Below are positions 2,665 through 25,891 of a stretch of DNA of 64,000 nt, in pieces. The notes beneath the pieces were generated by a model. The model ran no database searches. It saw only the letters and a list, made by a program, of their open reading frames with translations, and was not told the origin of the DNA. Position 1 is the first letter of the stretch; each line of letters starts with the position of its first letter. The stretch comes from an uncultured bacterium. GTDB lineage: Bacteria; Chloroflexota; UBA5177; JANWHV01. The position numbers were made by a program, and so were the translations under genes. The stretch spans positions 352,001 to 416,000 of the forward strand of contig CAWHAE010000014.1 of NCBI GenBank assembly GCA_963827235.1. The letters run 5' to 3'.

Positions 2665-3357
2665 ATGGCAGAAGTACTCCACTATCGGCCCGAAGGCATT
2701 CGCATCGCACCCTCTATCCTCACTGCTGATCTGGGCCGGCTTGCCGAGAGCATACGCGCGGCCGAGGCCGGCGGCGCGGACTGGATCCACCTGGACGTCA
2801 TGGACGGCCGGTTCGTACCGAACATCTCCTTCGGACCTCTCATCGTGGCGGCAGTGCGTAACGCCACCAACCTTCCGCTCGACGTGCATCTCATGATCGT
2901 GGAGCCAGAGCACTTTGTCCCGGCCTTTGTCGACGCCGGAGCAACATCGATCACGGTGCAGGCCGAGGCATGTTTGCACCTGCATCGCCAACTGCACCAG
3001 ATCCGCGATCGGGGAGCGCGCGCCGGCGTGGCACTCAATCCGGCAACGCCGCTCAGTGCGGTCGAAGAGGTTACTGCGGACATGGACCTGCTCCTGGTCA
3101 TGACCGTGAACCCAGGCTTCGGCGGCCAGTCGTTCATCCCGCATAGCCTCGACAAGGTCAGGCGAGCCCGGGACATGCTCGCCCGGCTCGGGTCGGCCGC
3201 GAGTTTGCAGGTGGACGGCGGTATTGACGCCGGCAACATCGGCACCGTGGCGCATGCCGGCGCCGACGTCTTTGTCACCGGGTCATCCGTCTTCAACCAG
3301 AAGCACACGGTCGCCGAGTCGATTGCCCTCTTGAGGCAGGCACTGAAAAACGGTTGA
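2665..3357 (+). CDS. rpe: ribulose-phosphate 3-epimerase
   Basis: [46 protein letters not shown] before ATG 2665. Confidence 0.96.
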
Positions 3358-6131: not shown

Positions 6132-8800
<2,669 letters not shown>

Positions 8801-8814
<14 letters not shown>

Positions 8815-20975: not shown

Positions 20976-22376
20976 TCAGTCGTGCTGTCCCCTGGTCGCA
21001 CGCGGCTGAGAGGCAATACTCTCCATCCCGGCGCCGAACCACTTCGGGTCATAGCTGATGTTGCCTCGCACGAGCACCCGCAGGAATGTGCGCGTGATCA
21101 TGATCGCCGTGAACATTGAGACGGCAACGCCGATGCCCAGCGTGGTGGCAAAACCCGCGATAGTCGTGGCACCGTAGTTCTGGCCGAACCAGTACAGCAC
21201 GCAGCAGGTGATGATCGTGCTGACGTTCGAGTCGCGGATACTGGTCCACGCACGGTTGAATCCGGCCTCGATGGCAGCACCAAGCGTCTTCCCGGAGCGC
21301 AGCTCCTCTTTCAGTCGCTCAAAGATCAGTATGTTGGCGTCGACCGCCATGCCGATGGAGAGTATGAACCCGCCTATGCCCGCCAGGGTGAGCGTGATGC
21401 CGCTCGCGCCGCTGCCGCTGAATGGCCAGAGCTTGAACACGGCGACAGAAAGCGACGTGTAGATGAGCAGTGCAAGGTCCGCCAGCAGGCCGGGCAGCCT
21501 GTAGTTCATGACCATGAAGAACATCACGACGAGCATGCCGACGATGGCGGCCTTGACGCTGTCGTTGACATATTGGGACCCCAGCGTGGCGCTGATCTGG
21601 CTGCTGGCCTCGGCGGTAAACGCGATCGGCAAGGCACCATACTTGAGCCGGATTGCTATCGCCTTGGCCGTGTCGCTGCTGCCGATGTTGTTGATCTCGC
21701 CGTTGCCGCCGGTGATCGCCGACTGGATCTTCGGGTCAGTGACCACCTTGCCGTCGAGCACGAAGGCCATGTACTCGCCGACGTGATCAGTGGTGTAGGA
21801 AGAAAGCCGTCCACTGGCACCGCCCTTGGCGCCGAAGGTCACGATCGGCTGCCCGTACTGGTCGAAGGTCGAGCTGATCTGGCTGGAATCGAGCTCGTTG
21901 CCCTTCATGACGACGCAGGGAGTGGGGGCGTTCTTGGCGTCGCACAGCGTCGATGTGTTCGAGTATGGGAATGTGGCACCATCCTGGAGCACCGTCAGGC
22001 TGCCCATGCCGTACAGCACGAGCTCGCCGGTGCTGCCGATAGTCTGCCGCACCACCTCCGGGTCCCTCACGCCCGGCATCTCTACGTCGATAGCGTCGGT
22101 TCCCAGCTGCGTCACGATCGGCTCGGACACGCCGAACGCATTGACGCGCTTGGTAATGATGTCTATTGCCGCGCTCATGGCGTCGCTCGTGGCTGCTTTC
22201 GAGTTGCGTGCTTTGAGCTCCATGCTGAGGCCGCCGGTCAGGTCAAGGCCCTGGTGGATCGCGGTGCCGTGTCCAAACACCGTGAACTTGCCTGCCGTGC
22301 CCGCCAGATCCGCCAGGACGGCAGCAATCGTCAGCAGGATAATCCCGATCAGAGCTAAGTTAGCGTGTTGACGCAT
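20976..22376 (-). CDS. secD: protein translocase subunit SecD
   Basis: GLDLTGG, RVNAFGVSEP, YGALP, GMAVDANILIFER, IRDSNVST. Confidence 0.97.
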   Translation of the reverse strand: MRQHANLALIGIILLTIAAVLADLAGTAGKFTVFGHGTAIHQGLDLTGGLSMELKARNSKAATSDAMSAAIDIITKRVNAFGVSEPIVTQLGTDAIDVEMPGVRDPEVVRQTIGSTGELVLYGMGSLTVLQDGATFPYSNTSTLCDAKNAPTPCVVMKGNELDSSQISSTFDQYGQPIVTFGAKGGASGRLSSYTTDHVGEYMAFVLDGKVVTDPKIQSAITGGNGEINNIGSSDTAKAIAIRLKYGALPIAFTAEASSQISATLGSQYVNDSVKAAIVGMLVVMFFMVMNYRLPGLLADLALLIYTSLSVAVFKLWPFSGSGASGITLTLAGIGGFILSIGMAVDANILIFERLKEELRSGKTLGAAIEAGFNRAWTSIRDSNVSTIITCCVLYWFGQNYGATTIAGFATTLGIGVAVSMFTAIMITRTFLRVLVRGNISYDPKWFGAGMESIASQPRATRGQHD

Positions 22377-22510
22377 ACGTGTACCTCTCAGTCTTCATCG
22401 CAGGAAACATGGACTGGGCCGGCCCGCTTCGCCGCACGGGCTGCGTGCCGCGGCGCGGCCGGTCGCGATCGCGTGCCTGGAGGGGATGAAAACTAGGGAG
22501 CGCGTATGCG
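22372..22510 (-). promoter_or_regulatory. predicted mRNA stem-loop sequestering the secD RBS and start codon
   Basis: 22503-22510 is a perfect 8-bp inverse of 22372-22379, which covers the secD ATG. 22485-22495 pairs with 22389-22399 (11 bp, 2 G-U) next to the SD. GC-rich nested stems lie between. Confidence 0.7.
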
Positions 22511-22936
22511 CGGCGGCGACTTGGCAGCGGAGGACGAAGGCACGACCTGAGACGCCGCCACCAGTGCTCTGTTCGTAGTACTGCCGGCGGTGTCCGAGGA
22601 CTTGTCGCCAAGCAACTGGACCGATCGCGGATCCCTCGCCCTGGGAGTGCGAGCAGGAGCGATGGCCGGAGCGGCGTCCAGCGATCGAAGGTGAGAGCCA
22701 TCCTGCTCGGGGCTTGAGAGCCCGGCCGAAGGCAGCAACAACGTCTGGCCGTCAATTGCCCCGGTGCTGATTGCCGATCGGGCCTGAGACACGTCCGACT
22801 GAAGCGCGGGCTGGACCGGAGCTTGCGCGAGATCGCGCGCACCGGCAATAGCGCCCACGCCGCCGCTGCCGGCGTGAAGCGAGGCGACGAAGATGGCGAG
22901 CGCGCGCACTAACGACGATACGGACCGCACACGCAT
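22493..22936 (-). CDS. putative secretion-monitor/ribosome arrest leader peptide upstream of secDF
   Basis: GAGGTG SD; basic then hydrophobic N-terminus (MRVRSVSSLVRALAIFVASLHA); low-complexity spacer; C-terminal PPRIRAP-stop; 116 nt upstream of secD. Confidence 0.65.
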   Translation of the reverse strand: MRVRSVSSLVRALAIFVASLHAGSGGVGAIAGARDLAQAPVQPALQSDVSQARSAISTGAIDGQTLLLPSAGLSSPEQDGSHLRSLDAAPAIAPARTPRARDPRSVQLLGDKSSDTAGSTTNRALVAASQVVPSSSAAKSPPRIRAP

Positions 22937-23002
22937 CAGGCTACTGTCACCTCGAGATTATGCTGCAGGCAGCCGGCACAGGCTGCCGAATGAGCACTCA
23001 CT

Positions 23003-23032
23003 AGTATCTTGGTCCAGGTGCCCGCGTGTCAA
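23003..23032 (-). promoter_or_regulatory. putative sigma70 promoter for leader-secD-secF
   Basis: Minus strand TTGACA-N18-GATACT. Confidence 0.4.
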
Positions 23033-23056
23033 ACGCGCAGAGCCCGTGGGGCGCCT

Positions 23057-23896
23057 TCACGGACGGTCGGTATACTCCACGCCGCGCAGCCTGCGTGACC
23101 TGGGACGCGGCGACGCAGGGCCCGCGTCGACGTCTGCGCCCACCCCGCCGCGAAAGTCGCGCGAATCAATGGTCACGCAGGTGCTAATCACAGGGTCCGA
23201 CATGCGAGAGGCGAGACGGCCGCCGATCTCGTCCAGCGAGCTATTCGTGGTGATCACCGTGGGCAGGCGATAGATGTAGCGGTGATTGAAAAGCTGATAG
23301 AGCTTCTCGGTCGCCCACTGCGTGCTGATCTGAGTACCCAGGTCATCAAGAATGAGGAGCTGAGCCTGGCGGACACCCTCGAAAAAGTCGTCGTAATCGA
23401 GCTCGCTTCCGGGCGCGTAGGCAGAACGCAAGTGGTCGAGCAGATCCGGAACGACCATGAACAGTGCCGGCTCTCCGATCGAGAGCCTGTAGTTGCCGAT
23501 AGCCGCGGCCAGATGGGTCTTCCCTGTCCCGTACCCTCCCATGATCACCAGCCACCCGTCAGGGCTGAGAGCGTACTGCTGGGCACGTTTGTGAGCATTC
23601 TGCTGCGGTGAGTCGACGATAAAGGACTCGAAGGTCATGCCGGCGAGAGCTCGCAAGTTGGATTTTTCCAGCAGTCGCTGCATCCGGCGCTCCGCTATCT
23701 CGCGCTCCTTGCAGGTGCAGGGCACGATACTGCCGAAGCGCGGATCGTCTACCGGCACGTCCAGGCGCAGGTACCCGGCACCGCGGCACTGGGCGCAAAC
23801 CGGAGTGAGGTCACGACTGGACGACGTGACCGTATCGGCCCCCGGTGTATTTCTCCGGATCTCCAGGCGCTTCAGGATGTCGCCGATCGATTCCAC
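23057..23896 (-). CDS. DnaC/DnaI/IstB-like AAA+ helicase loader
   Basis: CAQC..CTC zinc motif, GGYGTGKT, LILDDLG, ITTN, RLASR. GTG start at 23896. Confidence 0.88.
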   Translation of the reverse strand: MESIGDILKRLEIRRNTPGADTVTSSSRDLTPVCAQCRGAGYLRLDVPVDDPRFGSIVPCTCKEREIAERRMQRLLEKSNLRALAGMTFESFIVDSPQQNAHKRAQQYALSPDGWLVIMGGYGTGKTHLAAAIGNYRLSIGEPALFMVVPDLLDHLRSAYAPGSELDYDDFFEGVRQAQLLILDDLGTQISTQWATEKLYQLFNHRYIYRLPTVITTNSSLDEIGGRLASRMSDPVISTCVTIDSRDFRGGVGADVDAGPASPRPRSRRLRGVEYTDRP

Positions 23897-24545
23897 TGGA
23901 CTTCCCTTCAGCCTCCCACCGCTTGAGTATCGCTCCGACGTACGCCCAGTTGCGCTTGTTCTGCTCCACGGCCAGACGCATCGCGTCCCCGATCCACTCG
24001 GGCGGATAGCTGAGCTCCGCGTCGCGCAGCCGATCCGCAATTAGCGGAGTGAGCACGCCGATATTCCGCTCATATAATGTAAAGATATTTGGTCGATAGA
24101 TGCGAACCACCTCGACCGGCCCGGTATCCGCGCCGACCACCTCGGACGGGTCTATCTCCTCGCGCCGGAGACGCTCGATTGCCTCGCGGCTAACCGGCGT
24201 ATTGATCAGGTACCAGCGCTGCAGTTCCTTCTCGGACCTACCGAGCGAGACCAGGAGCACGGTGCCTCGGGTGACGGCAAGCTCCAGGCCTTCACGGAGG
24301 TAATCCTCGGCAGCACGCGGCCCCAAGCGCGGCTTCAGCGAGCGGAGCAGCACGTGGTCGGCTTGCAGCTCTTCGAGCGACATTGCCTTGGGCAGTCCTT
24401 TGCGCCGCGCCAGGCGCCAAAACAGATGGAGCGTCACTTTAAGCTCGACGAGCGATTCGATCTCGGGAAGCAAGATACTGAAAAACGCATCCGGCACCGG
24501 CGTGTTCGGCGCCCTGCTCGGGTAGAAGCCTGCGAAGCCGCTCAT
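23811..24545 (-). CDS. DnaD domain replication protein
   Basis: VPDAFFS.LLP.I..L.ELKV, IFTLYERNIG.LTP, WAYV..IL..W DnaD pattern. ATGA overlap with the dnaB stop. Confidence 0.88.
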   Translation of the reverse strand: MSGFAGFYPSRAPNTPVPDAFFSILLPEIESLVELKVTLHLFWRLARRKGLPKAMSLEELQADHVLLRSLKPRLGPRAAEDYLREGLELAVTRGTVLLVSLGRSEKELQRWYLINTPVSREAIERLRREEIDPSEVVGADTGPVEVVRIYRPNIFTLYERNIGVLTPLIADRLRDAELSYPPEWIGDAMRLAVEQNKRNWAYVGAILKRWEAEGKSSGIDRRHPEAPGDPEKYTGGRYGHVVQS

Positions 24546-25891
24546 AGAGGCGTCCGAGCCTCGAGATCTCGGAATCTCGTCTGTACCTTGTCGAAATAGA
24601 GCGACAGCTGACCGGTCGGGCCGTTGCGGTGCTTGGCAACGTAGAGGTCCGCGATGTGCTGTTTCTCGGTCTCGGGATCGTACATCTCTTCGCGACACAG
24701 GAAGATGACGACGTCTGCGTCCTGCTCGATGCTTCCGCTCTCGCGCAAATCGGAGAGCAGAGGGACGTGAGAGGTCCGCGAGTCGACGCCGCGCGACACC
24801 TGCGAAAGCGCCACCACCGGCACGTTCAACTCCCGCGCCAGGACCTTGAGCGCGCGAGAGATGCCGCTGATCTCCTGCACGCGGTTCTCGGAGGCACGAC
24901 CCGACATGAGCTGCAAGTAGTCGACCACGATCAAGTCCAGCCCTTGCTCTGCCTGCAGCCTGCGAGCACGATTGCGCATCTCCGCGGGCGTGATGCCGGC
25001 CGAATCGTCGATGAAGATCTTGGTTTCGGAAAGCACGCCGGCCGCTTCGATCAGTCTGCCCCATTCGGACTCGTCAATGTAGCCCGAGCGCAGGCGCCCG
25101 CTGTCCAGTCGCCCTTGCATGCACAGGAGACGCTGCACGAGCTGTTCCTTCGACATTTCGAGGCTGAATAGCGCGATCCGATGCTTGAAGCGCACGGCCG
25201 CGTTATGGCACATGCCCAGCGCAAGTGCCGTCTTGCCGTGTGCCGGTCGTGCGCCAACGATGATCAGATCGGAGCGCTGCAGGCCGCCGAGAATCTTGTC
25301 GAGATCGACGAATCCCGTGGGCGTGCCGAGGATGGCACCTCGGTGCTCGTGGACATAATCGGCCTGTTCGAGTATGGTGGTCAATACCTCGCGGATCGGC
25401 ACGAAGCCGGCGCTGTTCCGGCCCTGGGAAACGGCGAAGAGCGTCTCCTCGGCGTCGTTCAGCGCCTCCTCGACTTCGACGCCATCACGTTGCGCGATGC
25501 TGATGATCTGCCCGCCGGCGCGGATCAGTCTGCGTAGCACCGCCAATCGCTCGACGATACGCGCGTAATGCTCCGCGTGCAGGGAGGTGGCGACCACGTC
25601 CACCAGCGACAGCACATACCCCCGCCCCCCGGACCGCTGGAGGAGGTCGCGTCGCTCGACCTCCTCCAGCACGGTGATCACGTCGACGGGCCGGCGCTGT
25701 TCGTACAGGTCTACCATGACGCGGTAGATCACCGCGTGCGCGTCGTGGGCAAAGTCATCCGGCCGCAGGATGGCAGTTATCTCGATAATGGCGTCGGGAT
25801 CGAGAAGCAGACTGCCAAGAACGGCCTGTTCGGCTTCAAGACTGCGCGGTAGGTGCTCTTCGCCTCCAGCCGCCAGTGTCTCCGTGATCAA
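24542..25891 (-). CDS. dnaB: replicative DNA helicase
   Basis: EAEQAVLG, GARPAHGKT, FSLEM, VDYLQLM, SDLRESGSIEQDAD, KHRNGPTG. No intein. Confidence 0.97.
   Translation of the reverse strand: MITETLAAGGEEHLPRSLEAEQAVLGSLLLDPDAIIEITAILRPDDFAHDAHAVIYRVMVDLYEQRRPVDVITVLEEVERRDLLQRSGGRGYVLSLVDVVATSLHAEHYARIVERLAVLRRLIRAGGQIISIAQRDGVEVEEALNDAEETLFAVSQGRNSAGFVPIREVLTTILEQADYVHEHRGAILGTPTGFVDLDKILGGLQRSDLIIVGARPAHGKTALALGMCHNAAVRFKHRIALFSLEMSKEQLVQRLLCMQGRLDSGRLRSGYIDESEWGRLIEAAGVLSETKIFIDDSAGITPAEMRNRARRLQAEQGLDLIVVDYLQLMSGRASENRVQEISGISRALKVLARELNVPVVALSQVSRGVDSRTSHVPLLSDLRESGSIEQDADVVIFLCREEMYDPETEKQHIADLYVAKHRNGPTGQLSLYFDKVQTRFRDLEARTPL

Follow-up and report, generated by a model that had tools for sequence, protein, structure and literature searches.

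In the 64,000-nt stretch of DNA analysed here (the window), three consecutive genes lie on the minus strand: an ORF for a small leader, secD and secF, with 116 nt between the leader and secD. The genes and the features discussed below are as follows.

23003..23032, minus strand: TTGACA-18 nt-GATACT, promoter-like by its match to the consensus alone, with the leader ATG about 67 nt downstream
22493..22936, minus strand: leader ORF, 147 amino acids plus TAG, with a long Ala/Ser/Pro-rich middle and a PPRIRAP-stop C-terminus
22493..22510, minus strand: proposed stall site, CGC AUA CGC GCU CCC UAG (Arg-Ile-Arg-Ala-Pro-stop), with Pro in the P site and UAG in the A site
22485..22511, minus strand: 5' arm of the predicted long-range helix, comprising the RIRAP codons, UAG and the next 8 nt (-13..+13 from the first base of the Pro codon, 22498)
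22401..22479, minus strand: nested GC-rich inner hairpins, enclosed by the long-range helix in the minimum free energy (MFE) structure
22371..22399, minus strand: 3' arm of the predicted long-range helix, containing the secD Shine-Dalgarno (SD) sequence GAGAGG (22389-22384) and the secD start codon (22376-22374)
20976..22376, minus strand: secD, 466 amino acids, Pfam PF22599 (9.1e-19), PF21760 (2.9e-17) and PF02355
19880..20926, minus strand: secF, 348 amino acids, Pfam PF02355 (1.6e-50) and PF07549 (2.6e-8)

After the in-frame stop, secD has a single candidate start codon, the AUG at 22376-22374, which is preceded by the SD at a spacing of 7 nt. One promoter-like site was found where 0.1 was expected in shuffled sequences, no terminator-like site was detected in 22200-23300, including the leader-secD interval, and Rfam gave no match at the locus (E up to 1). 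Leader, secD and secF may form a small operon read from one mRNA. The leader itself, which matched no Pfam family, begins with MRVRSVSSLVRALAIFVASLHAGSGG, a signal-like N-terminus with three Arg in residues 1-12 and the hydrophobic core ALAIFVASL at residues 12-20. By its ORF listing, the genome holds no RAP-type leader upstream of secA or yidC.

Among 41 related genomes, a search with the leader sequence by itself found convincing matches only in G001 (46% identity over the full length) and in G002, where the copy consists of the first 53-64 residues at a contig end, short of the motif, and where no secD was found. A search of 5.8 billion proteins added two more members (P0001 and P0002), and a profile search of 1.84 billion representatives returned 13 proteins, 12 of them new. 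Homologous leaders also lie upstream of secD in G003 and G004, congeners of the genome studied here (G000) with SecD 65-66% identical, and there they end in R(R/W)ARAP(D/N)AV(T/S)TGN-stop. With the profile, the leader was present in all five genomes of genus g1, including G000, and in none of the 16 genomes of the two other families of the class (a count that includes the unpublished G018). Outside genus g1, a survey of 401 genomes of the phylum gave only three weak matches (E 4e-4 to 7e-3), which fall in the low-complexity middle of larger ORFs. A metagenome scan recovered one leader locus, ending after leader residue 81, and two contig scans for more homologous DNA, with the leader alignment and with SecD, found nothing further.

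Conservation within this family is concentrated at the two ends of the protein. The RAP near the C-terminus is invariant in 17 of the 18 full-length members; P0008, the one without the motif, was left out of the leader alignment. Five members (G000, G001, P0001, P0002 and P0003) end in RIRAP-stop, and the 12 others extend past RAP with C (8), N (2), D (1) or S (1) followed by 5-7 residues. The basic and hydrophobic N-terminal segment is also conserved, while the approximately 100 residues between it and RAP are variable. Judged by composition and hydropathy, all 17 aligned members have a signal-like N-terminus with 2-5 Arg/Lys in residues 1-12, and in 15 of them hydropathy peaks in a 9-residue hydrophobic core at 10-20. 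In the four loci for which DNA context was available (G000, G001, G003 and G004), the leader is always co-directional and upstream of secD, with gaps of 97-111 nt in the three relatives.

The sequence-only reading had taken the leader for an arrest peptide, and the family alignment independently strengthens this proposal. Arrest peptides related to Sec and YidC with RAPP-like C-termini are patchily distributed over many phyla (Fujiwara 2024, PMC10987492); those described include ApdA, ApdP, ApcA and the RQH family (PMC7897499; PMC10987492; Morici 2024, PMC10951233). In the accessible part of Fujiwara 2024, RAP*, RAPC and RAPD stand in the list of RAPP-like query motifs and are seen in uORFs that cluster with ApcA, and a supplementary table contains RIRAPSMQ and RIRAPNV uORFs upstream of secA (PMC10987492). 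With RAP in 17 of 18 members, the leader family has the RAPP-like C-terminal motif as defined in that study, and the motif is present in four of the five species-level genomes of genus g1 (G000, G001, G003 and G004), where the same study asks for at least three uORFs per order. The strings RIRAP, ARAPC and RARAPC did not reveal our family in the portion of its supplementary tables that was covered, which leaves its absence from them unproven, and a literature search found no paper on this leader family.

The most similar described system is uDF_NAP-stop of Bacteroidota, also a uORF upstream of secDF with an N-terminal localisation signal and x-A-P at its extreme C-terminus. Toeprinting placed the stop codon in the A site of its stalled ribosome, and residues -3 and -1 are important (PMC10987492). 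The leader probably works like uDF_NAP-stop but is not a member: the ending is N-A-P there and R-A-P here, uDF_NAP-stop is known from Bacteroidota only in the accessible text, and its arrest was toeprinted, while our leader is known from its sequence. Moreover, mRNA structure forms no part of the accessible description of uDF_NAP-stop, whereas a helix is predicted at our locus. The validated RAPP-like members for which accounts were accessible stall mostly during elongation, with Pro or Gly in the A site, in contrast to the termination stall proposed here. Taken from its sequence conservation, the leader most likely represents a new, narrowly distributed RAPP-like arrest peptide that monitors Sec, with stop-type and elongation-type variants in one family, which makes a direct comparison of the two types possible.

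Folding of the mRNA with RNAfold in contexts of 171, 177, 240 and 271 nt brought the last leader codons and the secD initiation region together, by the same two helices, in every MFE structure. In the first helix, CGCAUACG (22510-22503, CGC-AUA-CG of Arg-Ile-Arg) is the perfect complement of CGUAUGCG (22379-22372), exactly as the sequence-only reading had described for the Arg-Ile-Arg codons and the region of the secD AUG, and all 8 pairs have ensemble probabilities of 0.997-1.0. In the second helix, UAGUUUUCAUC (22495-22485) pairs with GAUGAAGACUG (22399-22389) over 11 positions including two G-U, with probabilities of 0.95-1.0 for 10 of the 11 pairs; the terminal U22495-G22389 pair reaches only 0.42 because U22495-A22388 competes with it. 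This second helix, formed by the stop codon and the next 8 nt, had been thought merely to abut the SD. Its 11 positions and two G-U pairs were recovered, but the SD is itself paired, through G22387, G22385 and G22384, with C22496-C22498 of the Pro codon (p 0.87-0.95), which makes the original observation slightly stronger than first stated.

Altogether the outer helix has 24 pairs with interruptions (22511-22485 with 22399-22371) and closes three nested GC-rich stems, which had all been named before and are all in the MFE structure: CCGGCC (22462-22457) with GGCCGG (22424-22419), a bulged CGCCGC/GCGGCG and GCACG/CGUGC. The helices are predicted to be stable from 25 to 60 C, and the secD AUG has an unpaired probability of 0.001 in the ensemble; a structure with SD and AUG unpaired, which would have spoken against the proposal, was found neither in the MFE nor in the ensemble. 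Two codons of the RIRAP stretch are rare in this genome, AUA (8% of Ile codons) and GCU (8.6% of Ala codons). Pairing was rejected as the reason for the rare GCU, as C22500 and U22499 are unpaired in the MFE structure.

The 5' arm coincides with a single ribosome footprint. With Pro in the P site and UAG in the A site, 22510-22485 corresponds to -12..+13 from the first base of the Pro codon. We defined the translation initiation region (TIR) as -14..+5 around the secD AUG, and of its summed pair probability of 14.2, 13.9 goes to the stall-site footprint. The footprint was then masked by forcing -15..+15 around the P-site Pro codon to be single-stranded. In G000, this raised the predicted unpaired probability of the AUG from 0.001 to 0.58 and that of the TIR from 0.27 to 0.49, while the SD moved from 0.44 to 0.47 and was still about half paired. 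The earlier proposal that a ribosome parked on the last leader codons frees secD initiation is thus borne out by the prediction for the AUG, but not for the SD.

Strong folds are common in this genome because of its GC content (65.2%), and the complementarity could have arisen in this lineage by coincidence, from GC-rich intergenic sequence and constraints on coding, with no regulatory role, in which case the leader may still arrest but act otherwise. Several measures are in keeping with such a coincidence. The stability of the whole fold was ordinary, with z-scores of -1.84 (10 of 200 shuffles as stable), -1.69 (11 of 200) and, in a further calculation, -1.5. The duplex of 31 x 20 nt (-18.8 kcal/mol) was unremarkable, as 12.7% of 20000 random genome windows were as low. 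Coding constraints also contribute: five of the eight pairs in the first helix follow from coding alone, because AUG-CG (Met-Arg) complements CGN-AU (Arg-Ile), and a C-rich Pro codon faces a G-rich SD.

Other measures argue against coincidence. With the second helix taken in, a 31 x 31 nt duplex reaches -31.9 kcal/mol. Of 20000 randomly placed windows with this geometry, 1.2% were as strong, and so were 2 of 1332 same-strand junctions from a rough gene call in this genome, both ordinary in appearance, although the 31 x 31 nt window was picked post hoc, once the helix was known. Control junctions were called between ORFs of at least 120 amino acids with GC3 minus GC2 of at least 0.15, with overlaps removed greedily, gaps of 40-300 nt and starts chosen by SD-likeness; the leader-secD junction was not among them. 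For full partition-function folds we used 674 of the 795 junctions whose gaps measure 60-200 nt, drawn at random up to a time limit. The TIR-to-footprint pairing (14.66 observed) was equalled in one of them (0.15%), and 1.9% showed as large a gain in opening upon masking, whereas overall TIR pairing was as high in 15.3%. What sets this locus apart is therefore the segment with which the TIR pairs; that it is paired at all is not unusual. Codon choice pointed in the same direction, since among the 5184 synonymous recodings of RIRAP-stop only 1.5%, weighted by usage, pair as well as the real codons. The correspondence of the 5' arm with one ribosome footprint is likewise not what a coincidence would lead one to expect.

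We compared the RNA of the four loci with DNA, among which G001 is the only other one ending in RIRAP-stop. When G001 was mapped on the 24 pairs of the outer helix, 15 were unchanged, one C-G became U-G, six were broken and two were gapped. The synonymous differences of its RIRAP codons (CGU AUU CGC GCU CCG) break pairs of the G000 type, and a U-to-C change at secD position -1 breaks pairing as well. Covariation had been suggested as a check; between these two sequences, the only comparable ones, none of the 24 outer pairs shows a compensatory change, an outcome that the sequence-only reading had named as speaking against its proposal. RNAalifold on G000 and G001 gave a consensus outer helix of 15 pairs in which all positions are identical or changed on one side, and the sequence on which it is built is conserved because of coding or the SD. 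The three compensatory pairs between the two genomes are all located in the inner hairpins.

In its own predicted fold, the G001 TIR is nevertheless paired mainly with the footprint (11.7, a value reached by 1.2% of the G000 control junctions), with the register shifted: CGUCUCCUC, located after the stop (+8..+16), pairs with the SD region, and UA of the stop codon pairs with UG of AUG. This similar pairing by other base pairs is a further point against coincidence. The stop-centred duplex of G001 is ordinary (-14.3 kcal/mol; 67% of control junctions as low), its codon choice is unbiased toward pairing (57% of synonymous recodings), and masking of its footprint gave no predicted opening (0.26 to 0.30). 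In G003 and G004, TIR-to-footprint pairing was 0.00 with the P site placed either on the Pro codon of RAP or on the last sense codon. In narrow folding windows their SD (AAGGGG) pairs with GCC-CU(A/U) of the leader, some 30 nt before the Pro codon of RAP and thus behind a stalled ribosome; wider windows no longer show these pairs. The intergenic fold is very stable in G004 (z -4.83, 0 of 200 shuffles as stable) and not in G003 (z -0.91); GC-rich strong hairpins lie between leader and secD in all four loci. According to these predictions, the closest relative, G001, arrives at a comparable outcome through a partly different set of pairs, unlike the more distant G003 and G004. The RNA design of the helix is not conserved even within the genus, and for this reason structure prediction at a single locus is weak evidence alone.

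The sequence-only reading had counted the helix as independent support for arrest. This claim held in part, and for G000 only: with no covariation, an ordinary stop-centred duplex and no opening in G001, zero pairing in G003 and G004 and an SD that stays half paired, the predicted helix would lend at best modest support to the arrest reading. The absence of covariation, the 6 of 24 pairs broken in G001 and the missing equivalent in G003 and G004 agree with coincidence, as do the z-scores near -1.7 and the lack of predicted hairpins of this kind for ApcA, ApdA and ApdP in the accessible part of Sakiyama 2021 (PMC7897499). Set against the rarity of the pairing among junctions and recodings, we consider coincidence doubtful, but a reading that deserves to be kept in mind.

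The best-supported explanation for this genome is a switch formed by arrest at RIRAP and the helix, which we hold with middling confidence. The leader would be a substrate that monitors Sec, with an N-terminal export signal, a long variable linker and the C-terminal arrest motif R-I-R-A-P-stop. In the resting mRNA, 26-27 nt (the RIRAP codons, UAG and the next 8 nt) would pair with the SD and AUG of secD, and stable inner hairpins would keep both arms together, such that secD initiation is blocked. Termination is known to be slowed by a C-terminal Pro, and arrests of the SecM, VemP and MifM type are known to be released when the translocon pulls. When export is slow, the arrested ribosome would stay in place, with Pro-tRNA occupying its P site and UAG its A site; its footprint would cover the whole 5' arm and free the secD initiation region, leading to more SecDF synthesis. 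When export is active, pulling on the nascent chain would end the arrest, and upon termination the helix would re-form.

The same arrangement could also act by plain translational coupling, in which ribosomes terminating on the leader transiently melt the 5' arm in the absence of a programmed arrest and RAP is conserved for another reason. Because the 5' arm comprises the final codons and the stop, every ribosome that terminates there would open it, the arrest at RAP-stop is something that we infer, and in the accessible text of Fujiwara 2024 even the ribosome of a non-arresting mutant transiently disrupts a stem (PMC10987492). However, an RAP that is invariant in 17 of 18 members next to approximately 100 freely varying residues is what RAPP-like arrest peptides show, and coupling offers no evident function for it, and the signal-like N-terminus is conserved too, which makes coupling alone unlikely in our view. 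Even less probable, to the point of being hard to defend, is that the intergenic hairpins act mainly at the RNA level, as an attenuator, a terminator devoid of a U-tract, a stabiliser or a processing site, with TIR masking incidental: hairpins of this strength in all four loci (G004 z -4.8, 0 of 200 shuffles) and the confinement of all three compensatory G000-G001 pairs to them would fit, but there is no U-run after the inner stem, neither the terminator search of 22200-23300 nor Rfam (E up to 1) returned a hit, and it gives no reason for the stall codons and the TIR to be the ones that form the outer arms.

The switch by arrest and helix can be placed beside systems in which a similar logic has been described. 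In secM-secA, vemP-secD2F2 and uDF_RQH_Enterobacterales-secDF2, the SD of the downstream sec gene is held in a stem-loop, which is opened when a ribosome stalls near the leader's 3' end, as would be the case here; for uDF_RQH_Enterobacterales, mutations of the stem validated the masking of the secDF2 SD, in the leader from Alteromonas (PMC10987492, accessible part). The switch in G000 is predicted. Three differences set G000 apart from these systems: the stall codons themselves would be the anti-TIR arm, with SD and AUG both paired, the stall would occur at termination, and the structure is not conserved in the genus. For the RAPP class upstream of secDF or yidC (ApdA, ApdP and ApcA), the link from stalling to expression was left open in the accessible part of Sakiyama 2021, because SD-sequestering hairpins were not predicted (PMC7897499), whereas one is predicted at the G000 leader locus.

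A broader reading, which we put forward tentatively, is that this leader family has changed over between stalling at termination, in members ending RIRAP-stop, and stalling in elongation, in members where C, D, N or S and a short tail come after RAP. In the members ending RIRAP-stop, one footprint-sized segment of 26 nt would serve both as the arrest codons and as the complete antisense of the secD SD and AUG, with pairs that are not conserved between species but re-invented by register shifts. If this is true, the single-segment design would be the most compact switch of a monitoring substrate so far. The G000 locus offers a clean testable case, as arrest codons, stop codon and the arm predicted to mask the TIR coincide in one ribosome footprint.

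In most members of the leader family, including the leaders of the same-genus relatives G003 and G004 and proteins from among P0004-P0014, recovered by a profile search of protein representatives, RAP is not terminal. The residue that follows RAP in these longer leaders is Cys in eight, Asn in two, Asp in one and Ser in one, and a further 5-7 residues come after it. Stop-type and elongation-type versions of the motif thus occur side by side within one leader family. A (P/R/K)G pair, located 6-7 residues N-terminal of RAP, is semi-conserved in the family.

We also considered codon choice at the end of the leader in the source genome, G000 (22493-22510, minus strand), where rare synonymous codons are used: AUA, which makes up 8% of Ile codons, and GCU, which makes up 8.6% of Ala codons. 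The relative G001 has AUU for Ile and, as in G000, GCU for Ala. Both leaders stop at UAG, which accounts for 38% of stops in a rough gene set.

The RNA between leader and secD was folded in two relatives:

L024 (G004 leader-secD locus) 2863-3047, minus strand: leader-secD intergenic RNA, fold of -100.4 kcal/mol

The G004 RNA is well above shuffled sequences in stability (z -4.83; 0/200 equally stable), and in its predicted fold the Arg-Ala-Arg-Ala-Pro codons of the leader themselves make one hairpin; the G003 fold is unexceptional (z -0.91).

Three ORFs precede the leader:

Window 23057-25891, minus strand: gene group preceding the leader

One encodes an IstB/DnaC-like AAA+ ATPase (PF01695, 1.2e-15), and the others are 417 aa and 449 aa long, the latter reading, by eye, like a putative DnaB-type replicative helicase. 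G001 has these neighbours ahead of its leader as well.

By ORF listing, no RAP-type leader was seen in G000 upstream of yidC (contig C8), where the small ORFs ahead of the gene are presumably yidD, rnpA and rpmH, judged by eye; the ~450 nt that precede secA likewise showed none.

In G000, secA is split between two frames:

Window 6132-8814, plus strand: secA, break near 6250-6256

At CTTGCGCGAAAAG, G000 carries one more base than G001 (CTCGC-CGAG...) and G003, so that the first ~45 codons are out of frame with the remainder. The extra base may be a genuine frameshift, or an error introduced during sequencing or assembly; only one full-length secA copy was found in the genome.
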